In this document: positions 5,426 to 53,863 of the stretch, in pieces
Numbering within the stretch: the stretch's first letter is position 1
Layout: the number at the start of each line of letters is the position of its first letter
Assembly (NCBI GenBank): GCA_022798795.1
Contig: JAAWNF010000003.1
Coordinates: forward strand, 1-57,346
Direction: 5' to 3'
From: Bacilli bacterium
GTDB lineage: Bacteria; Bacillota_I; Bacilli_A; RF39; UBA660
Length of the DNA stretch: 57,346 nt
The notes under the pieces: generated by a model
The model's database searches: none
Seen by the model: the letters and a program-made list of their open reading frames with translations, nothing else
Told to the model about the DNA's origin: nothing
Position numbers and translations under genes: made by a program

Positions 5426-5446
5426 GGCGTCGTTTTAAAAACTTTG

Positions 5447-5687
5447 AAAGAGAGAATACTAGCAATTATTCAAAGAGAACTTACATTTGGTGAAAGTAGG
5501 TAATAGGAACTAGTACGAATGGCTCTGGAGTTGTTTATCTGAATTTTTAGGATAAACCGCAATTTGCGTTATAAAAGCAAGGTAAAATAAGTATGTGTAT
5601 TTCTTACGAAAAAGCTTATTTTATAAAAAAAGGTGGTACCACGTTATCCCACGTCCTTTTATTTTGGACGTGTTTTTTCTTTTTTTG
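5447..5687 (+). ncRNA. T-box riboswitch, Met specifier
   Basis: Stem I (agag/ctct and tactag/ctagta pairings; AGAGA and GGTGAA motifs), specifier ATG at 5519-5521 followed by a purine, T-box AAGGTGGTACCACG (5630-5643), and terminator acgtcc...ggacgt plus U-tract. The UGGU bulge fits an A73 discriminator (Met), not G73 (Trp). Confidence 0.9.
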
Positions 5688-5734
5688 AAAGATTTTTAAG
5701 ACGAATTTCGTATAATAAAAGTGGAGGATTATGT

Positions 5735-6226
5735 ATGGCAAGATATTTTGAAAAAATTAGTTGGGAACAATGGAAAAAAGATATTGGAAATGATAGAGAA
5801 GTTTACGATAATCATGAGCTTCCAAAACGTCAAACAAAATTTAGTGCAGGCTATGATTTTAAAAGCCCAATCGATTTTGTTTTACATCCAGGAGATGTAA
5901 AGAAAATTCCAACAGGTATAAAAATAGCTATGAATGAAGATGAGATGTTAATGCTCGTTGTAAGAGGTTCCGTAGGATATAAATATAATATACGAATGAC
6001 AAATCAGGTTGGGATATTTGAAGGCGATTATTTTAATTGTCCATCAAATGAAGGACATGCTTGGATAAGCCTTCAAAATCATAGTTCAGAAGATTTTGTT
6101 GTAAAAACTGGAGAACGAATTGTACAGGGGATTTTTACAAAATTTTTAACAGTTGATAATGAAGAAATTGTAGAAAATGTAAGACAAGGTGGATTTGGTA
6201 GTACCAATAAGGAGGAAAGAAAATGA
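5735..6226 (+). CDS. dut: Trimeric dUTPase
   Basis: Motifs AGYDF, RGSVG, G.FEGDY, RIVQGIF and RQGGFGST. The start is moved to ATG 5735 behind GGAGG. The stop overlaps the metG start (ATGA). Confidence 0.9.
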   Translation: MARYFEKISWEQWKKDIGNDREVYDNHELPKRQTKFSAGYDFKSPIDFVLHPGDVKKIPTGIKIAMNEDEMLMLVVRGSVGYKYNIRMTNQVGIFEGDYFNCPSNEGHAWISLQNHSSEDFVVKTGERIVQGIFTKFLTVDNEEIVENVRQGGFGSTNKEERK

Positions 6227-7800
6227 AAGAAAAATTTTATATATCAACAGCAATTGCTTATACATCTGGGAAGCCACATATAGGAAATACTTATGAGATT
6301 GTGCTAGCAGATGCAATCGCACGCTTTAAAAGATTAATGGGATATGATGTTTATTTTCAGACAGGAACAGATGAACATGGAGAAAAAATAGAAATAAAAG
6401 CAAAAGAAGCTGGTAAACAACCCCAGGAATTTGTTGATGAAATCGCACTTGAAGTACGAAGAATTTGGGATGTTATGAATACTAGTTATGATTGTTTCAT
6501 GAGAACGACTACTCCAGTACATGAAGAATGTGTAAAAAAAATATTTAAACGTCTTTATGAACAGGGTGATATTTATAAAGATGAATATGAAGGATTATAT
6601 TGTACACCTTGCGAATCATTTTTTACTGAAACGCAGTTGATAGATGGAAAATGTCCAGATTGTGGAAGAGATGTCCATAAAATGAAAGAAGAAGCTTATT
6701 TCTTGAAATTAAGCAAATATAGTAAACAGTTAGAAGAATATATAGAAACACATCCACATTTTATTGAGCCAGAAAGTCGAAAAAATGAAATGATTAATAA
6801 CTTTATCAAACCAGGCTTACAGGATTTATGTGTTTCTAGAACGTCGTTTACATGGGGAGTTCCAGTAGAATTTGACCCAGGTCATATTGTGTATGTTTGG
6901 ATAGATGCATTAAGTAATTATATTACTATGTTAGGATATAATCCAGAAGGAGAAAGCAGTGAGCGTTTTCATAAATATTGGCCAGCAGATTTGCATTTAA
7001 TTGGAAAGGACATTTTAAGATTTCATACAATTTATTGGCCTATTATTTTAATGGCTCTAGATTTGCCACTTCCACATCAAGTTTTTGGTCATCCTTGGTT
7101 ACTTTGTGGAAATGATAAAATGAGTAAATCAAAAGGAAACATCATTTATGCAGACGATTTGGTTGGTTTATTTGGAACAGATGCAGTTAGATATTATTTA
7201 TTACATGAGATTCCGTTTGCAAGTGATGGAACATTCACTTATGAATTATTAATTGAAAGAATAAATTCTGATTTGGCAAATATTTTGGGAAATCTAGTGA
7301 ACCGTACCATTTCGATGTCTAGAAAATATTTTGATGGAATTGTGAAAGAGCCAAAAGCGCCAGAAGAAATTGATAAAGAATTGATAGAGATTGTGAAGAA
7401 AGCCTCAAAAAGAGTGGAAGAAAAGATGAATGAATATAGAGTTGCAGATGCAATAGATGAAATCTTTGAGATTTTTAGAAGAAGTAATAAATATATTGAT
7501 GAAACAATGCCATGGGCACTTGCAAAAGATGAAGGTAAGCGTGACCGTTTAGCAACAGTTCTTTATAATTTACTAGAGGCGATACGTTCAGGAGCAGTGT
7601 TATTACAAGCTTTTTTACCAGAAACAGCAGATGAAATATTTAAACAATTAAATACCGAAAATCGTTTTATAGAATCATTGAATGAATTTAATGGCTTAGA
7701 TGTAGGGATAGAACTTCATGAACCTTCTCCTTTGTTTGTGAGAATCGAAAAAGATAAAAAATTAGCAGAAATCGAGGAAAATAATAGAAATAAGATGTAA
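6223..7800 (+). CDS. metG: Methionyl-tRNA synthetase, short form without the C-terminal tRNA-binding domain
   Basis: HIGN and KMSKS signatures, GTDEHG, one Zn knuckle (CTPC...CPDC), YVWIDAL. Confidence 0.97.
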   Translation: MKEKFYISTAIAYTSGKPHIGNTYEIVLADAIARFKRLMGYDVYFQTGTDEHGEKIEIKAKEAGKQPQEFVDEIALEVRRIWDVMNTSYDCFMRTTTPVHEECVKKIFKRLYEQGDIYKDEYEGLYCTPCESFFTETQLIDGKCPDCGRDVHKMKEEAYFLKLSKYSKQLEEYIETHPHFIEPESRKNEMINNFIKPGLQDLCVSRTSFTWGVPVEFDPGHIVYVWIDALSNYITMLGYNPEGESSERFHKYWPADLHLIGKDILRFHTIYWPIILMALDLPLPHQVFGHPWLLCGNDKMSKSKGNIIYADDLVGLFGTDAVRYYLLHEIPFASDGTFTYELLIERINSDLANILGNLVNRTISMSRKYFDGIVKEPKAPEEIDKELIEIVKKASKRVEEKMNEYRVADAIDEIFEIFRRSNKYIDETMPWALAKDEGKRDRLATVLYNLLEAIRSGAVLLQAFLPETADEIFKQLNTENRFIESLNEFNGLDVGIELHEPSPLFVRIEKDKKLAEIEENNRNKM

Positions 7801-39053: not shown

Positions 39054-40478
39054 ATGAAAAATAGAGCAGTGGTAATTTTAAAGTTTATGACAAGTTTAGT
39101 AATCATCTTAATCGGAGTTGTTATATGGTTATTTCTAAACCAACCAAAAAAAGCCAAAGAAATTCTTCCAACAGAACCAGAGGTAAAAAATGAAGTCTTA
39201 GATATTAATAGTGAACTTGTAAAAAAACTTCCTTATCCAAATATGCAAGAGAAATGTAATACTGTTGAAATGATGGGAAGATATAATGAAAAAGTTTTCA
39301 AAGTAGAAGATATTGAATTAGCAGAAAAGATGGATACAGCATATAAAAAAATGACTGATAATCAAGAAAAATCGATTAGCGCAGAAGATATGCAAAAGTA
39401 TACAGAAATGTATTGGGGAAAAGTAGATGATTATAAAAATTTTACATTTTCTATTAATAATACAAATTATTCTTATGATGAAGAAGAAAATGTTTATTAT
39501 ATTGAAAGAGAAGAAGAAGAGAATTGTGAAGTTACAATTTATGCAAAACGTTTTATGCCTGTGTTGCTAAATGCAGAAAGAATAGAAAATCAAATTGTTT
39601 TAGACTATGTAATAGTATATTACATTGAAGATTCTAGTAATAAAGAAAAGATTGTTTATCATATTTATCAGGACAAAGGATTTACAAATCATTTAGAAAC
39701 AGTAGAAGAAAAAGAAAGTAGTTTAAAAGATATTGCCTCAAAAAATAAATCAAAATTAGAACATTATACATTTATTTTTAAAGAAGAGAATAATAACTTT
39801 TATTTTGCTGAAGGAAAAAAGAATCAGGAATTTGAAAGTTTGGAAGAATTGACATCATTACCAGAAAATCTTAATTTATTATCATTAGAAGAATTTTGTT
39901 TTGATTTTAATGAACAAAGTGTGTATCAAAAGAACCATTTTTCAATAGAAAACATAGATGAAAGAACTAGATTATTATTGGCATTCTATGATTCTTATAA
40001 AAAGGAACTTTTTGATAAGGAAGAAGTTCGATTTGAAGATAGAATAGAATATGTTTTTAATAAGGATGAAGTAAAGACGATTTATCAAAATTTTTGGGGA
40101 GAAGATTTAAATTTTGAATTAGAAAATTTTAAACAATTTAATTATGAGGGGATATTAGAAGATAATCAATATCGTTTCATTATTAATACTGAAGAAACAG
40201 TTTGTGCTACTACAAGAAAATATGTAGAATTAAAACAAGAAAAAATATATCAAAAGGAAGATATAATTTATATAGATTATAAAATAAGATTTATTGATAG
40301 AGAAAAAAATAATTTGAGTATTTATCAAGAGCGAACTTATAATAGTTCCATAAAAGAAAACATCAGAAAAAAAGATATTTATGAGGAATATTGGGATTTA
40401 GAGTATATAACATATCGTTATGTGTTTAAAAAACAAAAAGATGGAAAATATTATTTTTTAGAAGGACTTTATATTTAA
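39054..40478 (+). CDS. Hypothetical membrane-anchored acidic protein with two tandem similar domains
   Basis: N-terminal TM helix; both halves end in similar motifs (HYTFIFKEENNNFYF and YRYVFKKQKDGKYYF). Terminator at 40477-40501. Confidence 0.75.
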   Translation: MKNRAVVILKFMTSLVIILIGVVIWLFLNQPKKAKEILPTEPEVKNEVLDINSELVKKLPYPNMQEKCNTVEMMGRYNEKVFKVEDIELAEKMDTAYKKMTDNQEKSISAEDMQKYTEMYWGKVDDYKNFTFSINNTNYSYDEEENVYYIEREEEENCEVTIYAKRFMPVLLNAERIENQIVLDYVIVYYIEDSSNKEKIVYHIYQDKGFTNHLETVEEKESSLKDIASKNKSKLEHYTFIFKEENNNFYFAEGKKNQEFESLEELTSLPENLNLLSLEEFCFDFNEQSVYQKNHFSIENIDERTRLLLAFYDSYKKELFDKEEVRFEDRIEYVFNKDEVKTIYQNFWGEDLNFELENFKQFNYEGILEDNQYRFIINTEETVCATTRKYVELKQEKIYQKEDIIYIDYKIRFIDREKNNLSIYQERTYNSSIKENIRKKDIYEEYWDLEYITYRYVFKKQKDGKYYFLEGLYI

Positions 40479-40614
40479 GACTACTTTGTAGTCTTTTTTT
40501 TGTAAAATCTGTTTGGTCATTTTTAAACATTTCATTCAAAAACAACACTATTTTTAAATTTTCGTCATTTGCTTTTCTGGGAAGATTTTGGTATAGTTTG
40601 TCTGAGGTGATAAA

Positions 40615-41148
40615 GTGAAAGAAAAAGATATTCATTTTTTTAGAGATAATGTAGATATACTAGAAAAATTTTTAGAATATTTGTGGAAAACTCCTATCAA
40701 AGTCAAAGAAAAAATAATATATACTGAGGAAAAATTATTTACTATTGATTTCATAACGGAAAAAGAAGAAAGTATAAAAATGAAGGCAAAACTAGAGTGG
40801 ATAGCAGGAGAATTAATAGTGAGATTGAAATATAACTCTTATAAGGATAGAAAATCTGATGGTATAAAAAATAGTTTATTATTATCTTTTTGCTATAAAT
40901 GTCCAGAAGAATTGGGACTTTGTAATCAATATGGATTATATAGAAAAGAAGATATAAAAAATTTAGAATCATTGAATGATATTGATTTAATTCATAAATA
41001 TCAAATAGAAAAAAACATATTAGGAAATAATCAAATTTTTATATTTAATATGAATAAAATAAGAGAACACTGTAGTGATAAAGTATTAGACCAAATTTTG
41101 CAAGAGTTTAATAAATCAATTAAAGATAGTTTGTATCAAGATAATTAA
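40615..41148 (+). CDS. Hypothetical protein
   Basis: 177-aa ORF, GTG start behind gaggtg; promoter TTGCTT-17-TATAGT upstream. Confidence 0.65.
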   Translation: MKEKDIHFFRDNVDILEKFLEYLWKTPIKVKEKIIYTEEKLFTIDFITEKEESIKMKAKLEWIAGELIVRLKYNSYKDRKSDGIKNSLLLSFCYKCPEELGLCNQYGLYRKEDIKNLESLNDIDLIHKYQIEKNILGNNQIFIFNMNKIREHCSDKVLDQILQEFNKSIKDSLYQDN

Positions 41149-41199
41149 GCCTTCCTTGCATTCTAAAAATATTTATAATATAATTTAATTGGTGAGAAT

Positions 41200-41538
41200 A
41201 TGGATTTAAAAAATCAGAATATGTTTGGAAATCAAGTATTTCAAAAACAAGTTAACTTTAATCAAAACCCTTCTTTATCAAGAACAGTATCAGAATTGAA
41301 AGCAATGTCTGTAGACCCAACTAAAAAAAACCAAGTTTTAAGTTCTTTAAATCGTTTCCAAGGACAAATGAGTCAAAGAGATTATAATGAAATTTTATCA
41401 AATGTAAAAAGTATCAATGAAAGTAAAACATTAGATAATAATCATGCATTAGAAAACAGAAAAACGATTAGTGAGCAAGACTACCAAAGAACAGTAGATG
41501 ACTTAAAACGATTAGAACATGAAGTGAGGTATAAATAA
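41200..41538 (+). CDS. Hypothetical Q/N-rich protein
   Basis: 112-aa ORF; TTGCAT-17-TATAAT promoter; stops 1 nt before the next ATG. Confidence 0.7.
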   Translation: MDLKNQNMFGNQVFQKQVNFNQNPSLSRTVSELKAMSVDPTKKNQVLSSLNRFQGQMSQRDYNEILSNVKSINESKTLDNNHALENRKTISEQDYQRTVDDLKRLEHEVRYK

Positions 41539-43973: not shown

Positions 43974-44906
43974 ATGGGTGGCAAGATATTCAAAACCTTA
44001 GATGAGCAAATAGAAATATTAAAATCAAAAGGACTAATCATAGAGGATTTAGAGAAAGCAAAAGAAATATTATTTCGAGAAAATTACTTTTTTATTAGTG
44101 GATACAGGCATTTGTTTATGCGTTCAATAAAAGAAAGTAGATTTATTGATGGAACCACATTTGAAGAACTTTATGCAATGTTTTTATTTGATAGAAAAAT
44201 AAGAAATATTATGTTTAAATATTTATTAATTATTGAGAATAATATTAAATCTATTATTAGTTATACATTATCTAAAAAATATGGTTTTAAGGAAAAAGAT
44301 TATTTAGACCCTAAAAATTTTACACAAGATAATTTGAAAATAAGGCAAGTGCATGACGTACTAAACAAAATGAAAAGACAGATTAGAGTAAATGGGAAAC
44401 AACATGCAGCTACTATGCATTACTTAAGCAATTATGGCTATATACCAATGTGGATTTTAGTAAAAGTTTTATCATTTGGAATAGTTTCTGAACTATATTG
44501 CATATTAAAAGCAGAGGACCAAGAAACAATCGCAGATATATACCATATCGATATTGAATCATTAACAATTTATTTAGCGCTTCTTTCAAATTTTAGAAAT
44601 TTATGTGCTCACGAAGATATTTTGTATGACCATCGAACGCAAAGAGTGATTCCTGATAATAAATATCATCATATGCTAGATATTAGTCAAACAAAAGAAG
44701 AATATGATTTTGGGAAAAATGATTTGTATGCACTTGTCATCATAATGAAACAAATGCTTAGAGAAGAAGAATTTAGAGAACTAATTTATGAATTAGGTTA
44801 TGAAATAGATGTATTGGATGGAAAATTAGATGTACTTCCATTAAATGCAATACTGAATAAAATAGGTTTTCCAGATAATTGGAGAGATATTGTTGATATT
44901 GATTAA
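43974..44906 (+). CDS. Abi_2 (AbiD/AbiF-like) family HEPN protein
   Basis: FKTLDEQIEILKSKGL, NYF..SGY, FDRKIR, IE..IKS.I, P.WILVKVLSFG and the HEPN motif RNLCAH (44595-44612). Confidence 0.88.
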   Translation: MGGKIFKTLDEQIEILKSKGLIIEDLEKAKEILFRENYFFISGYRHLFMRSIKESRFIDGTTFEELYAMFLFDRKIRNIMFKYLLIIENNIKSIISYTLSKKYGFKEKDYLDPKNFTQDNLKIRQVHDVLNKMKRQIRVNGKQHAATMHYLSNYGYIPMWILVKVLSFGIVSELYCILKAEDQETIADIYHIDIESLTIYLALLSNFRNLCAHEDILYDHRTQRVIPDNKYHHMLDISQTKEEYDFGKNDLYALVIIMKQMLREEEFRELIYELGYEIDVLDGKLDVLPLNAILNKIGFPDNWRDIVDID

Positions 44907-46004: not shown

Positions 46005-46080
46005 AGCTCTGTTTTTTTCGATTTACATATTTTAACTTTTTTGCTATAATAGAAATAATAATAGAGGATTGGTGATACTC

Positions 46081-47814
46081 ATGGAATCAGAAGCTAGCTT
46101 AATAGAGCAAATAGAAACAGATATTGACCAGTTAGACTTGCTAGGTATGCAAGAAAATGTAGAAAAAGAACGCATTGAAGAAGTTATTGCTAGAATAAAA
46201 GGATTAGCTAGACAATATGTAGAATTATTAGATAGTATCATGGAACAGCAAATACAAGAAACAGAGAGCTTATTCGCATTAACTTTAGAGGAAGAATTGG
46301 ATAAGAGAAAGATGATTCTTACTCATGTTACTAATAAGAAAAATTGTATAATAGAGTTGTTTAAAGATATAAAAGAGATAGAAGTGGCAGCACCATTACA
46401 GCAGTTTGTTGATGCGATTATAATACAGGCAACAAATCAGGTTACAGACTATGAGAGAGATGTCAAGTTAGTAGAAACGCAATTTGAAAAAATTAAAGAG
46501 GCAGAAACAAAGGAAGCAGAACTCAAAAGTAAAAAAAGTCAAGCTCATATAAGAATGACGAATCTTAGGAATTCACAAATGTCTTTTGCAGATTTAAATG
46601 CAGAGTTTATGACGATTTGTTCTCATTTTTTAGATGCCAATCATGCAGAAGAAATAGATTTTCCAAACTTAATGGCCAAGCGAGATGCTTTAACAAAACG
46701 TCGTAAGCGGTTAATGGAAAATTTGAAGCTAGCGCATAGTGCGAAAGATGCAGAGGGATATGTGGTCGCTTATGAGGGATATATTAAAACAAATCAATTA
46801 GAACTCGATAAAGTAGATGAAAAAAAAGTGCTTCATTTAATTAGAAAAATAGTCATGGGAAGTCCAATTGATAGTTATGAAACATTGACAAGCAGGACTT
46901 TAAATGTTCAGAAATTAATAAATTCTAGAGTTGCTAAAGTTGGAAAATTATATGAAGCTGGAGTCGTAACTAGGGAAGATTATGAAACTTTTGCCAGTCA
47001 AGTAGATTTTAGTAAGATATATGAGCGATTGTCTGAAGTGGCAGAGATTGAAAGATGTGAAAAGCAAATAAGACAAGCAGAAAATGGATTACAACATACA
47101 AGAGACCATATCAAAGGAAAAGATGAATTAGAAACGATTTTTATAGAACGTGCAAAAGCAAGAGGAAGAATTCCTGCGATACCAGAGAAACCAGAAATTT
47201 TATTTGAAGATGAAAATGTAATCTCTGGAAAGAAGAAGAAAAGACGCAAAATTATATCAGTTGAGCCAGCAAAAGCACATATAGTAGAAAAAATAGATAA
47301 AATGAAGCAATGGTTGATTTCTAGTTTAAATTCTATGACAAATATTTCAAAAAAAATAGGAAATCAAATCAGAAAAATGATAACAGTGCCAGAAAAATAT
47401 AAGCCATCAATTGGAGATAAAATTAAGCTTGGAGAGAAAGCTGCAATTTTTACTAATCCAATGGATGTGATAGAGCAGAAAGACCAAAAAGATGCAAAGA
47501 GTATTGGATTAACCGAATTAGATTTATATGTGACAAGAGGTGCAATTTTAGATTACACTGGGACACCAATTTACATGACAACAGATTATGGTATAGATTT
47601 AGAAACTATTGCCAAAAATATGAATTTAGAAATAGGTACTTATAATATTGCTTTAGGATGCTCTATTGGGGATTCAGAGGGAAAATTTATGGCAGTTGCA
47701 AATGACCAGTTAAATCCTAATATAGAAAAAGGCTGGATAAATGCAACAGATATTAATATAATGGTTATAAATCAATTAAATAAAGAATTAAAAAAGGGAG
47801 GAATGAGTAAATGA
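46081..47814 (+). CDS. Large coiled-coil hypothetical protein with a possible SH3-like C-terminal domain
   Basis: Heptad-rich N-terminal 330 aa; C-terminal IGDKIKL...GWINATDI. The stop overlaps the next ATG. Confidence 0.75.
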   Translation: MESEASLIEQIETDIDQLDLLGMQENVEKERIEEVIARIKGLARQYVELLDSIMEQQIQETESLFALTLEEELDKRKMILTHVTNKKNCIIELFKDIKEIEVAAPLQQFVDAIIIQATNQVTDYERDVKLVETQFEKIKEAETKEAELKSKKSQAHIRMTNLRNSQMSFADLNAEFMTICSHFLDANHAEEIDFPNLMAKRDALTKRRKRLMENLKLAHSAKDAEGYVVAYEGYIKTNQLELDKVDEKKVLHLIRKIVMGSPIDSYETLTSRTLNVQKLINSRVAKVGKLYEAGVVTREDYETFASQVDFSKIYERLSEVAEIERCEKQIRQAENGLQHTRDHIKGKDELETIFIERAKARGRIPAIPEKPEILFEDENVISGKKKKRRKIISVEPAKAHIVEKIDKMKQWLISSLNSMTNISKKIGNQIRKMITVPEKYKPSIGDKIKLGEKAAIFTNPMDVIEQKDQKDAKSIGLTELDLYVTRGAILDYTGTPIYMTTDYGIDLETIAKNMNLEIGTYNIALGCSIGDSEGKFMAVANDQLNPNIEKGWINATDINIMVINQLNKELKKGGMSK

Positions 47815-48694: not shown

Positions 48695-48768
48695 AGGGGT
48701 ATAGTTCAATGGTAGAATAACGGTCTCCAAAACCGCTGATGTGGGTTCAACTCCTGCTACCCCTGCCA
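48695..48768 (+). tRNA. trnW: tRNA-Trp(CCA)
   Basis: Cloverleaf AGGGGTA/TACCCCT, G73, encoded CCA, anticodon loop CT-CCA-AA, T-loop TTCAACT; A27-C43 mismatch. Terminator follows at 48778-48800. Confidence 0.97.
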
Positions 48769-48827: not shown

Positions 48828-49178
48828 TTGGATAATGATTTTGTATATTTATCAAGTCATCAAGCATTTGCTCTAGTGGATAAAATTAATGAACTAAAAG
48901 AAAATCCATATTTTAGAGATGGAATTGCCGAAAGTTTTATAAAAGAAGTCTACACAAGAGCTACAGAAATAACCGTTAATAGTCTCAACACTGGGACTAA
49001 TATATTGTCAAAATTACGAAAAAATGGCAATAAAATTAAAATCTCAAAAAATAAATTTGGATATATAACACGATTAACTGGAATAGATGTTTTTGATGAT
49101 GAAACTATTAATCAATTTATATCTAAAGTAAATAAGGCTAATCCTGAAACTGAACAAACTAACTTAAGAAGAAGATAA
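48828..49178 (+). CDS. Hypothetical protein
   Basis: 116-aa ORF, TTG start behind aaggag. Confidence 0.6.
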   Translation: MDNDFVYLSSHQAFALVDKINELKENPYFRDGIAESFIKEVYTRATEITVNSLNTGTNILSKLRKNGNKIKISKNKFGYITRLTGIDVFDDETINQFISKVNKANPETEQTNLRRR

Positions 49179-49243
49179 TAAAAGTAATATTCATATAACA
49201 AATAAAATTTGGAAACTCGTTCAGTTTCCGTGCCATTTGTGGA

Positions 49244-49737
49244 TGAAATGGCTTCGAAAAGTTGGAAAAAGAATGTATATAAAAATATATTCTTAAACTT
49301 GGAAAGAGTCATTTTTTTAATGAAAAAAACGATAGAAGAAAAACTTCAAATGTGTAAAGAACATGTAATAGAAGGAAAGTCATTATCACTTGTATGTGAA
49401 TTATACAATACAAAAAACATAGATGATTTAAAATATCTAGTTAATTTATATAAATGGAGAAGAACCATTTTTAAATAGAGAAAGAAAAACATATAGAAGA
49501 GCAACAAAACTATTTCTATTTTCTAAAACGGCATTAGATTAGGTAAAAAAGTATAATAAAGAATATAAATATGAAAGTTCTGCGGAATTAACAAAAGAGA
49601 TTCATGATTAGATAAAATGTTATAATGAAACAAAGATAATTACTAGATTAAAAACAACTCCAATTGATTTTAGAAAGAAATGTTTAAGTGAACTGGGAGT
49701 TGCTTAATTTTATATCTAACTTTTCGAAGTCGTTACA
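49244..49737 (+). mobile_element. Internally deleted IS3-family (IS150-like) element, 494 bp
   Basis: TG...CA ends with imperfect IRs (tgaaatggcttcgaaaagttgga versus the reverse complement tgtaacgacttcgaaaagttaga). Frameshifted OrfA N-terminus from 49320 joined to an OrfB C-terminus with an internal TAG (49609-49611). No target duplication seen. Confidence 0.8.
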
Positions 49738-49922
49738 CCATTACGTGAAAAACACGCTTTATTTTGTAGGCAGTTTCGCGATTAATATACAGTTTTAGAC
49801 ACTAAAGAAGAGGCATTTTTTTAAAAATTGCTTTTTTTGTTGAGCAGATATTAAAAATTGATAATATATAGTATAATTTTAATATAGGTATTTCTAAATG
49901 CTAAAATGTAAGGAGGGAATAT

Positions 49923-51948
49923 ATGTATAAAGATGAAAACTGTTTATTTTGTAATAAGAAATTTGAAAATAATAAAGTGGCAAAATTACCTGAAACAGAG
50001 TCAATAATATATCAAGATGAAGATTTTTATATTATTGTCGATATTGCTCCTCTAGTTAGAGGTCATATTTTAATAATACCTAATAAACATATTTATAATT
50101 TTAATCAATTATCTTTACAAGAAAAAATTAAAGTAGATTGTATCAAAAAAATTCGTTTCTACAACTTTTAAAGATATATATTCATTAGATACAATGTTTT
50201 TTGAACACGGCTCAACAGAAAATAATAATGGTGGAGGGTCAATAGATCACGCTCATTTGCATTGTCTACCATATAACAATTCAATTAATCAAAGTGTATC
50301 TACCACATTAAACAAATCACCTATAAACTTAAATATACTTAGAAATGACGAGTATAATAAAAACAAATCATATATATATTTAGAGGAATATAATAAATCT
50401 TATTTATATGATGTTGAAAATCTACCTAGCCAATTTTTAAGAAAATTAATATCTGATAATTCTAGTCAAAGCGAGTATAAATGGCAAAATTTATCACTTG
50501 ATGATATTAATAATAAGATTTTTGTAGAAACATTAAATGATTTAAAATCAATATTTGAAAATAATGATAATGTAGTTAGTTATTCTTCTACTTGGGATAA
50601 CATACATAGTAATTACACATCTGAATATGATAATTTTTTAGAAGAATACTTAAAATTAATTGATAAAAATAGCAAAATAATAGAATTAGGTTGTGGAGCA
50701 GCATACAACTCTATTGAGTTATTGAAATTAGGATATAAAGATATTATTGCAACTGATTTTTCAGAATATATTATAAGTAAATTAAATGCTAATAACCCTA
50801 ATTTAAAAACTATGGTTTTTGATATGACAAAACAATTTCCTTTGAGAGATAATGAATTTAATATTGTTATTGTAGATTTAAGCATACACTACTTTGATGA
50901 TGTAACAACAAAAACTATATTAAAAGAAATAGACCGTATATTAGTAAAAGGTGGTTATATTATAGGTAGGGTTGACTCAACTTCAAATTATCAAAAGAAT
51001 AGTAAAAATATTGAGCTTGAAAGAAACTATTATTTTAACGGAGAATATTGTAAAAGATATTTTGATATTTCAGATTTTGATAAATACTTTAATGAATTTG
51101 AAAAAATTAGCTTGAAAGAAAATATAATGAGTAGATATGAAAACGAAAAAGTCGTATGGGAATTTGTTTATAGAAAGAGGGAAGTAATGATTGATACAGG
51201 TTATTTATATTCAGATGATAAATCGCGATTATTTATTAATACCAGTTTAGGTTGTACTGGCGGTTGTGCTTATTGTTATTTACCTAAACTAGGATATTCT
51301 AATAATAAAGTGTGTTCAAAAACACTTACTTCAGATGAGATATTAATAGAGATAGAAAAAAGTAACTTTGAATTAACAAAAGATACACTTATTTCATTTG
51401 GTTGTTTTTCAGAATGTTGGGACAATACAAATATAAATCATACTAAAAAATTAATTGAATATTTTTTGAAAAATGGTAATCAAATACAATTATCAACTAA
51501 AAAAGAAATACTTGCAGATGATATAAAGGAACTTGCTAAACATATTAAATATAATGGTCAGTTAGTTATTTTGATTAGTAATTCTACAATTAGTAATTGG
51601 AAAGAAATCGAAAAAAATACCGATAGTCCTGATAAAAGATTTAATACTTTTGATAACTTAAAAGAATTTAATATACCAATAGTATTATACATTAAGCCAG
51701 TATTAGTAAATACCACTATTATTGATTTAGAATTATATAAAAAAATTATTAATAATTACAATATTAAAGATGTTGTTGTTGGTAGCATATTTAAAGATAC
51801 TGAGAGTGAAAAATTTATAAAATTTTCAAAAGATAAAAAATTCTTTTATAGTCAGACACAAGATGACATAACGATTATTGAAGCACTTAAAGGCATATGT
51901 AATGTGTATGAAAGAAGTATTGAAGTAATGAAGAAATATAAAAAATAG
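49923..51948 (+). pseudogene. HIT hydrolase + class I methyltransferase + SplB-like radical SAM fusion, interrupted by one extra A in A7 (50145-50151)
   Basis: ORF 49923-50171 has the HIT N-terminus (CLFC, GHILIIP.KH). ORF 50194-51948 continues FFEHG...HAHLHCLP, then ELGCG...TDFS, then CTGGCAYC. Removing one A gives a single 674-aa frame (...DCIKKFVSTTFKDIYSLDTMFFEHG). Confidence 0.85.
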
Positions 51949-52012: not shown

Positions 52013-52058
52013 AAAAACACTATCCTTTTTCTGCTTATGCAGAGGGGATAGTATTTTT
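52013..52058. terminator. Bidirectional terminator
   Basis: A-tract, actatcc...ctgc-ttat-gcag...ggatagt, T-tract. Confidence 0.7.
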
Positions 52059-52291: not shown

Positions 52292-52770
52292 TTAATAAAT
52301 CAATAGCTCTTAATTTATCAGTTATTAAAGATTACTTCGATAAAGAAATTGTATCACTTTCTACATCAAATAACAATGATGTTAACTTAATTAAAGAAAG
52401 TTATAAAGATTTAAAGCCGAATAAAGATGCTATAGTTAATACAGAACAGGGCTCTGTTTATTTTGCTTATGAATACGTTGAAATGGCAGAAATCATGGGC
52501 TTTATTAGAAGTATGTCACATCGTGGACACTGCTGGGAAAATTGCCCAATAGAAAATTGGTTTATGCAATTAAAACATGAATGGTTATGTCAATTCGATA
52601 AATTAACTAGAAACCAGGCAACAGAAGAAATAAAAAAATACGTTCATAGGTATAATAACGAACGTATTCAAAAGAAATTAGGATACTTGTCACCTGTACA
52701 GTATCGACTAAAATATTCAACTTAATTTATCTTTTTATTTAGTAAGTGCTTGACAAGTACTAGTATCTTT
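52290..52770 (+). mobile_element. 5'-truncated IS3-family transposase (OrfB integrase core and C-terminus)
   Basis: The frame is open from 52258: LSVIKDYFDKEIVS...NTEQGSVY...SMSHRGHCWENCPIENWF...YNNERIQKKLGYLSPVQYR, stop 52725. HSDQG is changed to NTEQG. The right end is approximate. Confidence 0.85.
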
Positions 52771-52774
52771 GATT

Positions 52775-53038
52775 CTATTTTTCTTTAGGTTCTTCGAATA
52801 ACTGGTCCATTTGAACATTTAAAACTTGGCTAATGTTCCATAAAACAGGAACACTAACCATTTGTTTTTCAGATTCTAAAGTTCCAATTAGTCCTGTACT
52901 TACACCAATCATTTCTGCTAAAGCAGCCTGTGTAATGTGCTCTTTATGATTTAAGTTATATAAATTGCGATAATAACGAACATTACTACCTACTAATTTA
53001 GCCAATTCATTTTTATTGTTATTATTATATAATTTCAT
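52775..53038 (-). CDS. XRE-family HTH transcriptional regulator
   Basis: GSNVRYYR...ITQAALAEMIGVS...GTLES...S...L..IS.VL.V; RBS aggtgg. Confidence 0.88.
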   Translation of the reverse strand: MKLYNNNNKNELAKLVGSNVRYYRNLYNLNHKEHITQAALAEMIGVSTGLIGTLESEKQMVSVPVLWNISQVLNVQMDQLFEEPKEK

Positions 53039-53068
53039 TTTACCACCTGACTACTCACTGCTACCAAC

Positions 53069-53098
53069 ATTGTAACCTTTTAACTGATTTGTTACAAT
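53069..53098. promoter_or_regulatory. Palindromic operator candidate between divergent genes
   Basis: attgtaac (53069-53076), 14 nt, gttacaat (53091-53098), next to TTGTTA-18-TATAAT (53116-53145). Confidence 0.5.
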
Positions 53099-53166
53099 TT
53101 AATATATATAATAAATTGTTAGATATACTAATAATAAGGTATAATATAAGTGGAGGGAGCAGTAGA

Positions 53167-53352
53167 ATGAAAGAACAAATAGATATTCTTTACGTGAAAA
53201 ATGTAATAAAGCCATTAGAAGAATTAATTCATAAAATTGAATTATCAGATGAGTTTTCACGAAAAGATTTGGAAATATTAAATCAATTATTATTAGAAAA
53301 ATACCTAATTTTGGAAAATATATTACAGGAAAATTCTTCTAATAGTCAATAG
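53167..53352 (+). CDS. Small helical hypothetical protein (61 aa)
   Basis: RBS ggaggg precedes ATG 53167; the ORF-track start at 53089 lacks an RBS. Confidence 0.65.
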   Translation: MKEQIDILYVKNVIKPLEELIHKIELSDEFSRKDLEILNQLLLEKYLILENILQENSSNSQ

Positions 53353-53407
53353 AAAACTAAAAAGTATTAGTGAATAAAAGAATTTATGCTTAGAAATGAG
53401 GTATGAT

Positions 53408-53863
53408 ATGAATAGGATGCTAATAGAAACTCCTATTGGTAGCATTGAGTTAATAGAAGAAAAGGAATGTTTGAAAAAAGTATCATTTGAAGAAAACCTC
53501 CATAATGAAATTCCTATAAAAGAAAGTAAGTTTTTAAAAGATTGTCAAAGTCAAATTCTAGAATATTTTAATGGAAAGCGAAAAAAATTTGACATTCCAA
53601 TTGTGTTGACAGGAACAAAATTTCAATTATGTGTATGGAATGCTTTAATGAAAATTCCATATGGTGAAGTAAAAACGTATCAACAAATTGCAGAAATGAT
53701 CGGAAATAAAAAAGCTTCTAGAGCAGTAGGTTTAGCAAATCATAATAATCCGATTCCAATTATTATTCCATGCCATAGGGTAGTTGGAAAAAATGGTTCC
53801 TTAATGGGTTATGTTGGTGGCTTAAATAGAAAAGAAAAATTGATAGCATTAGAAAAACAGTGA
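53408..53863 (+). CDS. ogt: Methylated-DNA-protein-cysteine methyltransferase
   Basis: GT.FQ..VW..L..IPYG...TY..IA, RAVG.AN..NPIPIIIPCHRVV. Probable start 53408. Confidence 0.95.
   Translation: MNRMLIETPIGSIELIEEKECLKKVSFEENLHNEIPIKESKFLKDCQSQILEYFNGKRKKFDIPIVLTGTKFQLCVWNALMKIPYGEVKTYQQIAEMIGNKKASRAVGLANHNNPIPIIIPCHRVVGKNGSLMGYVGGLNRKEKLIALEKQ

Follow-up and report, generated by a model that had tools for sequence, protein, structure and literature searches.

Accessory radical S-adenosylmethionine (SAM) modules paired with nucleotide-handling enzymes are an already known theme. In the viperin pathway, 3′-deoxy-3′,4′-didehydro-nucleoside triphosphates are synthesized, nucleotide kinases are encoded adjacent to the radical SAM gene, and CMPK2 is the partner enzyme. 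Oxetanocin A is made by the radical SAM enzyme OxsB together with the HD phosphohydrolase OxsA, which act on dATP, dADP and dAMP. Spore photoproduct lyase (SPL; SplB, PDB 4fhc, COG1533/TIGR03886) is a radical SAM enzyme that works on DNA, and the spliceosomal proteins Cwf19, CWF19L2 and Drn1 combine the domains CwfJ_C_1 and CwfJ_C_2. Here we describe a gene at positions 49923-51948 of a 57,346-nucleotide stretch of a Bacilli genome (contig JAAWNF010000003.1; hereafter the window), in which a HIT module, a class I methyltransferase module and a radical SAM module are encoded head to tail. It is one interrupted gene, a Rosetta-stone fusion of a cassette that exists elsewhere as separate genes, and we favor, with moderate confidence, the reading that its three enzymes belong to one nucleotide or nucleoside pathway that is switched off in this genome.

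Structure of the fusion gene

The gene is read as two open reading frames (ORFs) on the forward strand. ORF1 (49923..50171) encodes 82 aa comprising the N-terminal half of the HIT domain (CxxC, GHILIIP), and its closing TAA codon is created by the frameshift. ORF2 (50194..51948) encodes 584 aa, namely the C-terminal half of the HIT domain followed by the methyltransferase and the radical SAM enzyme. The frames of ORF1 and ORF2 differ by +1, and the ORF2 frame upstream of its own ATG continues the HIT domain, which is split between residues 76 and 77. The break coincides with an A7 homopolymer (50145..50151, forward strand); removal of one A, leaving A6, gives a continuous protein of 674 aa. 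In this repaired frame, the HIT module occupies residues 1-212 (49923..50559), the methyltransferase module residues 213-421 (50560..51186) and the radical SAM module residues 422-674 (51187..51945), all on the forward strand.

A three-enzyme fusion with a repaired length of 674 aa had been proposed in a first-pass annotation made from the sequence alone, and both points stood: HIT, Methyltransf_11 and Radical_SAM all scored above the Pfam gathering cut-offs, and the single-A deletion yielded the stated protein. The motifs listed there were also found in place, namely CLFC (49941-49952), GHILIIP (50061-50081), FFEHG (50197-50211) and HAHLH (50248-50262) in the HIT module, IELGCGAA (50680-50703) and ATDFS (50749-50763) in the methyltransferase, and CTGGCAYC (51253-51276), IQLSTK (51484-51501), EKNTDSPDKR (51610-51639) and LYIKPV (51685-51702) in the radical SAM module.

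An exhaustive HMMER search of 1.84 billion representative proteins gave 4663 matches, none of which covered all three modules. The three-domain architecture is unique in the databases searched, in line with the earlier statement that no such protein had been described. In a literature search, no paper describing the cassette, the radical SAM family or the fusion was found. Stand-alone homologs align end to end with each module: proteins of about 210 aa with residues 4-210 (HIT), about 205 aa with residues 219-420 (methyltransferase) and about 255 aa with residues 422-674 (radical SAM). The linkers between modules are about 5 residues or fewer, and the radical SAM module opens with the initiator Met of its free homologs (MIDTGYLY versus MIDNGYLF). 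Because free homologs match each part end to end, the window gene is best described as a head-to-tail concatenation of three genes. Pairwise fusions were detected in both orders, methyltransferase-HIT in P0046, P0051, P0067, P0073, P0113 and P0117 and HIT-methyltransferase in P0088.

Split cassette in gut Bacilli and Clostridia

With one genome per species, a scan with the radical SAM profile gave 80 loci, and another 80 came from metagenomes scanned with the HIT profile; cassettes were counted by local ORF calling and HMM searches of the fetched loci. All three genes were present in at least 11 loci (L036, L038, L039, L042, L045, L048, L053 and L098-L101), which originate from uncultured gut Bacilli/Clostridia or gut metagenomes. 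Their arrangement is methyltransferase(+) > radical SAM(+) < HIT(-). The methyltransferase and radical SAM genes are codirectional and adjacent or overlapping, and the 3′ end of the convergent HIT gene overlaps that of the radical SAM gene by 4-17 nucleotides (8 nucleotides in most loci). Across the 11 loci, identity to the window modules was 43-49% for the methyltransferase, 46-52% for the radical SAM enzyme and 41-46% for the HIT protein. Four further loci had the radical SAM and HIT genes without the methyltransferase (L050, L055, L074 and L127), and two had HIT and methyltransferase genes without the radical SAM gene (L102 and L117); these six loci are likewise from uncultured gut Bacilli/Clostridia or gut metagenomes.

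The same three families are contiguous in the window, but they are fused and in the order HIT-methyltransferase-radical SAM. Because these families form the split cassette elsewhere, the window gene is a Rosetta-stone fusion of that cassette. The first-pass annotation had named the lack of any co-occurrence of the three domains elsewhere as grounds for giving up its proposal; with the split cassette in at least 11 loci and recurrent fusions of HIT and methyltransferase, this test was settled in favor of the finding. The fusion indicates that the three uncharacterized families work together, probably on nucleotides.

A Mob_Pre relaxase gene adjoins the cassette in five loci (L038, L039 and L099-L101). 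Serine recombinase genes are also present in L038, and a SocA-like gene was read from the sequence in L099. In L036, L042 and L045, the cassette is flanked by housekeeping genes. Since the recognizable flanks are mostly of this kind, a location in defense islands is not claimed. One 347-aa match to the radical SAM model beside a HIT gene (L089) is, judging by its N terminus, probably a genuine SplB and was not counted as a family member.

Radical SAM module

The radical SAM module (CTGGCAYC, GCFSEC, IQLSTK, E..T....R and LYIKPV) gave 33.7 bits with Pfam Radical_SAM on ORF2 (cut-off 29.5). In an alignment of 43 family sequences, C23, C27 and C30 were invariant within LGC...C.YCYLP, corresponding to the CX3CX2C cluster motif. 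Y29, C30, Y31 and L32 were invariant and C73 was conserved in at least 90% of the sequences; the family has a near-invariant Cys in GC[YF]SEC, together with Q.ATK, E..T....R and LYIKP.

The AlphaFold2 (AF2) model of the module (pLDDT 95.5) matched 70 radical SAM structures in Foldseek at E ≤ 0.001. The closest PDB structure was SPL 4fhc (E 3.9e-9, TMq 0.66), which ranked ahead of HydE, SuiB, NifB, viperin and PflA. A profile search of PDB sequences returned only SPL, at marginal significance (E 0.023-0.25). That alignment set the YCYL of the family on the YCYL of SPL, and Cys73 on the Cys of SPL AACTSD, which we take to be the catalytic Cys140; for the mutant chains C140A and C140S, the alignment ended before this site, supporting the identification. 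The E.GT....R motif fell on EPGTSSFDGRL of SPL only in a secondary, nonsignificant stretch (E 0.022). Judged from the sequence, the module thus has the Tyr flanking the third cluster Cys and the Cys about 43 residues downstream that characterize the SPL relay. The SplB-like label given at first pass fits these results, with SPL as the closest structure, a shared YCYL and an aligned Cys73.

The C-x3-C-x-Y-C-Y-L motif is identical in SPL and the window protein, but the two differ in other respects. The window module has 253 aa compared with about 340 in SPL, identity is 16-18%, and the N-terminal ~65 residues of SPL are absent. The cluster motif lies at residues 23-30 versus approximately 85-92 in SPL, the latter numbering being based on subtraction of an assumed ~28-residue tag from chain positions 113-120. 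The family is accompanied by nucleotide-handling partners and has no sporulation context. NCBIfam models remained far below their cut-offs (SPL TIGR03886, 14.4 versus 437.55 bits; PA0069, 29.3 versus 360 bits; Rv2578c, 17.8 versus 430 bits). By its sequence, the module belongs to an unannotated SPL-like family of about 250 aa outside the SPL family proper. Its members are labeled "hypothetical protein" in RefSeq, and the family is rare, with 86 relatives among 185,579 species; this count, obtained with a single peptide pattern, is a minimum.

The partners of this family were surveyed in the 80 genome loci. An HD phosphohydrolase, adjacent or fused, was present in 23 loci, a class I methyltransferase from one of two different families in 20, a phosphoribosyltransferase (PRTase)-like protein in 14, a thymidylate-kinase (Tmk)-like protein in 12 and the HIT family in 10. 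NUDIX and canonical HIT genes lie near the radical SAM gene in L002 and L003. Fusions of the radical SAM domain were found with a histidine phosphatase (P0004, L001, with a Ham1-like gene four genes off), with HD-CE (P0042) and with a PRTase (P0119). In 16 of the 80 loci, a gene for Mob_Pre, a serine recombinase, an integrase or RhuM was no more than five genes away. A nucleotide substrate is suggested mainly because these partners make, phosphorylate or dephosphorylate nucleotides, and the nucleotide theme of the first-pass annotation is in keeping with the HD, NUDIX, histidine phosphatase, Tmk-like and PRTase-like partners.

These pairings resemble the described nucleotide-acting systems in part. 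Like viperin and the prokaryotic viperins, which are small radical SAM enzymes paired with nucleotide kinases and hydrolases and often mobile, relatives of the window enzyme adjoin Tmk-like kinases, and viperin structures were among the Foldseek matches (E ~1e-5, TMq ~0.6). Unlike viperin, the window enzyme has the SPL-type Cys/Tyr relay, which is not a viperin feature, and neither specific sequence similarity to viperin nor a match to the PADLOC pVip models was detected. The pairing of radical SAM and HD, fused and adjacent, recurs among the relatives and recalls OxsB/OxsA by gene pairing; in contrast to OxsB, the window gene has no cobalamin-binding domain, and it has HIT where relatives use HD.

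Several of the loci contain larger blocks. In L001 (5950-15863), the radical SAM-histidine-phosphatase fusion is accompanied by a WYL/HTH regulator, a Ham1-like NTP pyrophosphatase, an HD protein and many ORFs without a Pfam domain. In Lachnospiraceae (L064:8001-14893; also L065 and L082), the radical SAM gene is followed by two genes, one for a protein of about 1500 aa without a Pfam domain and one for a calcineurin-like phosphoesterase of 540 aa. Two proteins of about 1750 aa (P0026 and P0092) begin with the radical SAM domain and have no other Pfam domain; they are possibly fusions to the Lachnospiraceae giant of about 1500 aa. In L059 (8001-10676), the radical SAM gene is followed by genes for a small unannotated protein, a membrane-anchored PRTase-like protein and a Tmk-like protein; similar blocks occur in L060, L061, L062, L066, L069, L070, L071, L073, L075 and L083, from Proteobacteria, Campylobacterota and Paenibacillus. 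In Campylobacterota, this block sits between coaD and hisS.

HIT module

ORF1 alone matched Pfam HIT (PF01230) at 39.1 bits (cut-off 21.5, E 1.2e-9), DcpS_C at E 7e-8 and CwfJ_C_1 at E 6.7e-6 (26.4 bits, cut-off 21); the second lobe, CwfJ_C_2, was not detected by Pfam in the module. The module consists of the HIT core, the HAHLH triad and a C-terminal lobe (SY.Y.E, LPSQFLR and W.WQ). The triad corresponds to residues 109-113, with H109, H111 and H113 invariant in the family alignment, and is of the hydrolase type HxHxH. The family also conserves the N-terminal CxxC and, in the second lobe, Y150, Q170, R173 and W187. Weak matches to GDPGP1_N and to ATP adenylyltransferase were obtained as well.

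In the AF2 model (pLDDT 88.7), FHIT and Hint were matched by Foldseek over the core only (E ~1e-6). The whole module of 214 aa was matched only by chains of lariat spliceosomes (8ro1_L1/L2, 6id0_U and 3jb9_c), which are presumably Cwf19/CWF19L2, with TMq 0.53-0.69, E values down to 1.3e-9 and identities of 14-16%. The model suggests a two-lobed Cwf19-type fold, in agreement with the Pfam CwfJ_C_1 match. In contrast to Cwf19, CWF19L2 and Drn1, the window HIT family is bacterial, stand-alone or fused to a methyltransferase, has a complete HxHxH and has no spliceosome context.

Two-domain proteins of methyltransferase and HIT, in both orders, occur in soil and freshwater bacteria (e.g., P0046, P0088 and P0113), and their HIT domain is of the family seen in the window (E 1e-25 to 1e-37). 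Their methyltransferase is from another class I family or a more distant one (E 1e-5 to 1e-9), and their third partner is an AIRS/PurM-like protein, sometimes followed by TIR-NACHT, instead of a radical SAM enzyme. The HIT family also occurs in an operon of the order DUF1919 > another radical SAM gene > APH-like kinase > HIT (L087-L094 and L096). In view of the recurrent fusions and HIT operon contexts, HIT and methyltransferase look like a core pair to which a third enzyme (radical SAM or AIRS) is added. Some of the HIT contexts, with STAND, TIR-NACHT and DUF4062 proteins, have the flavor of conflict systems.

Two of these contexts were recorded in particular. In L104 (6645-10497), and also in L103, L105, L106 and L112, the methyltransferase-HIT fusion gene is followed by the AIRS/PurM-like gene; next to it, L104 encodes a 917-aa TIR-NACHT (STAND) protein, and L106 and L112 encode proteins of 927 aa and 1237 aa, respectively, at that place. 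The combination of methyltransferase-HIT, AIRS and TIR-NACHT may be a separate conflict-type system based on the same HIT family. A human-gut operon (L129:842-7159; also L130-L135 and L144-L146) has the order STAND-TPR (840 aa) > Peptidase_U32 (602 aa) > unannotated protein (255 aa) > HIT of the same family (224 aa) > weakly DUF4062-like protein (170 aa).

Methyltransferase module

The class I SAM methyltransferase module, with motif I IELGCGAA, gave 51.6 bits with Methyltransf_11 (cut-off 21.2) and 49.7 bits with Methyltransf_25 (cut-off 27) on ORF2. Stand-alone relatives of about 205 aa were up to 47% identical, and the closest PDB sequences were uncharacterized methyltransferases. One protein (P0053) joins this methyltransferase family to an ASCH domain, a domain that binds RNA or modified bases.

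Proposed pathway

On our best reading, the cassette is a mobile, nucleotide-modifying accessory pathway that is inactivated or phase variable in this genome. On paper, each module has what catalysis requires; the three are linked genetically in many loci and joined in a single gene in the window. The three enzymes would form one pathway, and its substrate would be a nucleotide or nucleoside and possibly a pyrimidine, for which the relationship to SPL and the Tmk-like partners give no more than a hint. The radical SAM enzyme would generate a 5′-deoxyadenosyl radical, and an SPL-type Cys/Tyr hydrogen relay would quench the product radical. The methyltransferase would methylate the substrate or the product. 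The HIT enzyme would cleave or transfer a nucleotidyl phosphate, a step that may be taken by the HD, NUDIX or histidine-phosphatase proteins in the sister operons. By a logic analogous to that of viperin with CMPK2 or OxsB with OxsA, the pathway could make a nucleotide analog with antiviral or antimetabolite action, or it could remove one.

A role in phage defense or antimetabolite resistance had been suggested in the first-pass annotation, and no direct evidence for it emerged. With PADLOC no specific match was obtained, and the family is nearly absent from the phage, plasmid and IMG/VR collections. In tblastn searches of the phage and plasmid collections, only weak single-domain matches were found, the scan of IMG/VR with the radical SAM profile gave one locus, and Foldseek against BFVD gave only generic radical SAM matches. 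Two function-unassigned PHROG families matched the HIT and radical SAM parts and were uninformative. With this near absence, a phage origin was rejected. A defense or antimetabolite role is nevertheless plausible from the mobility, patchy distribution and frequent decay of the cassette, from some of the HIT contexts and from an upstream Abi_2 gene, 5 kb from the fusion. We put forward only tentatively the full form of this proposal, in which the mobile trio makes or destroys a methylated, radical-modified nucleotide (possibly a pyrimidine) with an antiviral or antimetabolite role, the HIT enzyme is switched by the poly-A run, and the SPL-like radical SAM enzyme represents a second, viperin-independent route to nucleotide immunity with modular HD, NUDIX, kinase and PRTase partners.

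A number of observations weigh against the nucleotide pathway. Its chemistry is predicted from sequence, and no literature link to any substrate was found. The Cwf19-like HIT fold and the ASCH-methyltransferase fusion P0053 point to RNA over free nucleotides. No partner was recognized in 21 of the 80 radical SAM loci, and the Tmk-like neighbor in Campylobacterota may be just the housekeeping tmk. The cassette is often flanked by housekeeping genes: TrpS, a flippase and a GspE-like ATPase were recognized from their protein sequences, and a ClpB-like ATPase and Met gamma-lyase were identified by Pfam. With PADLOC-DB v2, the fusion matched only mad2, through the generic methyltransferase domain, and nothing was returned for the radical SAM or HIT parts. 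The PADLOC matches of ten radical SAM partner proteins were likewise weak or generic: mad2 was the strongest, on the second methyltransferase family (f2; E 5.2e-16), followed by PDC-M51B (E 1.5e-10) on the Tmk-like protein, which also matched PtuA; the others were VakA and PDC-S10. The fusion is unique and informative yet broken in this genome, which tempers its weight, and given the frameshift this strain may never have had an active form of it.

Alternative explanations

The main alternative is that the cassette acts on nucleic acid, in RNA or DNA modification, repair or resistance, by a logic like that of Cfr and Erm on mobile elements. The radical SAM enzyme would then repair or modify a base, the methyltransferase would methylate the same polymer, and the HIT enzyme would process a nucleotidylated or capped end. 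DNA is the substrate of SPL, whose structure is the nearest one solved, and the family conserves the Cys/Tyr relay of SPL; over its full length, the HIT module matches Cwf19/CWF19L2, proteins associated with RNA lariats, in addition to Pfam DcpS_C and CwfJ_C_1. The methyltransferase family includes the ASCH fusion, and PHROG 4752, annotated as "tRNA methyltransferase," matches the methyltransferase part. Like many rRNA-modifying resistance genes, the cassette is carried by small mobilizable elements. However, the recurrent radical SAM partners (HD, NUDIX, histidine phosphatase, Tmk-like and PRTase-like) are free-nucleotide enzymes, the radical SAM family is without the N-terminal extension of about 65 residues of SPL, and the methyltransferase is of the Methyltransf_11/25 type without DNA-methyltransferase motifs. 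We consider action on nucleic acid rather unlikely.

The other questions concern the frameshift. All residues invariant across the three families are kept in the window copy, including those downstream of the break, so that the break appears to be recent, reversible or tolerated. The A7 run was identical in two Logan contigs assembled independently from other runs, with 0 mismatches to the window over 4.9 kb (SRR11195281) and 2.9 kb (SRR3223201), and all three available assemblies have A7 only. No intact version of the fusion gene was found in the protein collections searched. Because the encoded gene is interrupted, it may be dead or phase variable in this genome; the frameshift would silence the HIT domain and, with it, probably the entire protein, through either recent decay or homopolymer phase variation.

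Comparable breaks were seen elsewhere. In L117 (1380-2022), an unrelated metagenomic cassette, the HIT gene of the same family is split by an independent +1 shift in an A7 run (ATTAAAAAAAGAT), 7 residues from the position of the window break and in the same helix; the radical SAM gene is absent from this cassette. Split or truncated radical SAM genes make up approximately 10% of those in the fetched loci; genes split in two or shortened to about 180-220 aa were seen in L067 (8001-8785), L080 (7974-8778), L074 (8218-8763), L056-L058, L040 and L052. This suggests frequent pseudogenization or errors in metagenome-assembled genomes. Our reading of the window break, L117 and the truncated radical SAM genes is frequent decay of a dispensable accessory function, with homopolymer phase variation as the alternative.

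In a further alternative, the frameshift is not inactivating, and the gene is expressed full-length at a useful level: transcriptional slippage, +1 ribosomal frameshifting or slipped-strand phase variation would make this a contingency gene. The break lies exactly in the A7 run, where the loss of one A restores the frame, the downstream invariant residues are intact, and L117 has its own A7 break in the same HIT helix. ORF1 is preceded by a strong Shine-Dalgarno sequence (AGGAGG, 49911..49916, forward strand, read directly from the sequence), 6 nucleotides ahead of its ATG, and by inspection none precedes the ATG of ORF2. Nevertheless, a run of seven A residues is short for efficient transcriptional slippage. 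Two more A7 runs within the gene are in frame, and because A-runs are common in the gene, they are simply the likeliest sites of mutation. The absence of the radical SAM gene from L117 looks like decay, as does the share of split or truncated radical SAM genes, and the assemblies hold A7 only. A contingency gene is, on these grounds, an unlikely explanation.

A third alternative is small-molecule metabolism unrelated to conflict, with the methyltransferase and radical SAM enzyme as tailoring enzymes. The HIT protein would be a GalT/VTC2-like nucleotidyltransferase or phosphorylase acting on a sugar, phosphonate or peptide-nucleotide intermediate linked to a nucleoside monophosphate, or else an MccH-like phosphoramidase detoxifying a nucleotide antibiotic; FomD/Fom3 and MccH are precedents. 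The operon with DUF1919, another radical SAM gene, an APH-like kinase and HIT resembles sugar activation by a kinase and a nucleotidyltransferase, and the weak GDPGP1_N and ATP-adenylyltransferase matches are in line with such a function. The triad, however, is the hydrolase-type HxHxH, unlike the HxHxQ of the GalT branch, no biosynthetic-cluster genes were seen beside the cassette, and other HIT contexts include the conflict-typical STAND, TIR-NACHT and DUF4062 proteins, which makes this explanation improbable. An intact gene whose apparent frameshift arose in sequencing or assembly is very improbable: homopolymers are error prone on some platforms, but the two contigs, assembled independently and from separate runs, match the window exactly over 4.9 and 2.9 kb, A7 included.

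Genomic surroundings

Upstream of ORF1, a consensus scan gave two overlapping sigma-70-like promoter matches (49858..49907, forward strand; TTGATA-16-TAATAT, and TTAATA-17-TAAAAT with TG); such matches were no more frequent here than in shuffled sequence, and they are therefore weak evidence for promoters at this site. Downstream, a terminator-like hairpin (52026-52047) with a T-rich tail (together 52026..52057, forward strand) lies 78 nucleotides past the stop codon; the first-pass annotation had given the gene its own terminator. Five intrinsic-terminator-like sites were found in the region, compared with 0.6 expected. The G+C content of the gene is 23.1%, compared with 29.5% for the window, and falls in the lowest 0.5% of the 2-kb windows, so that the description as very AT rich holds. 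The tRNA-Trp gene (CCA; 48695..48768, forward strand; ARAGORN, Rfam tRNA 62.8 bits) noted next to the gene lies 1.15 kb upstream and is a possible integration landmark for the insert.

The gene had also been placed between two IS3 remnants. The downstream remnant (52483..52725, forward strand), 0.5 kb from the gene, was confirmed and retains only the last 73 residues of the transposase (Pfam rve_2/rve_3; NCBIfam NF033516, residues 297-369 of 369, E 6e-22). The upstream one (49209-49478) was not borne out, as it had no match in Pfam, in NCBIfam, or in tblastn and blastn searches against plasmids. A search for att-like direct repeats or insertion sequence ends around the insert gave AT-rich chance matches only. 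The proposed horizontal acquisition fits the low G+C content, the tRNA gene at 1.15 kb and the one IS3 remnant.

Two small ORFs (116 and 89 aa) lie between tRNA-Trp and the fusion (48828-49478) and had no Pfam or NCBIfam match; the second is the unconfirmed upstream remnant. The Abi_2 gene (AbiD/AbiF-like, abortive infection) is at 43974-44906, and genes for an HtrA-like protease, a 581-aa ORF without a Pfam match (46069-47814) and a SleB-like cell-wall hydrolase lie between it and the fusion. Past the IS3 remnant (52775-53863) are an XRE-type HTH regulator gene (52775-53038, reverse strand) and a gene for an Ogt-type O6-methylguanine-DNA methyltransferase (53396-53863), which are probably host genes unrelated to the fusion. 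A second stretch that is equally AT rich (~23% G+C) lies at 39054-41538, just past the rpoA region, and its ORFs (474, 177 and 112 aa) had no significant Pfam match. A T-box leader (5435-5661; Rfam RF00230, 111.5 bits) is located upstream of the ORFs at 5633-7800.

Implications

As a Rosetta stone, the fusion joins three families that are labeled "hypothetical protein" or only generically in RefSeq and IMG, and it defines a concrete three-enzyme unit. The compact SPL-like family appears to keep the hydrogen-relay residues and yet accompanies nucleotide kinases, phosphohydrolases and PRTases. If nucleotides are the substrates of its members, the radical chemistry of SPL would reach further than DNA repair, and the family would join viperin and OxsB among the few radical SAM enzymes that make nucleotide analogs. 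The bacterial two-lobed HIT proteins are the first sizeable prokaryotic group that our analysis could tie by fold to the eukaryotic Cwf19/Drn1 proteins, and this link could help to explain the role of HIT-like domains in spliceosomal proteins.

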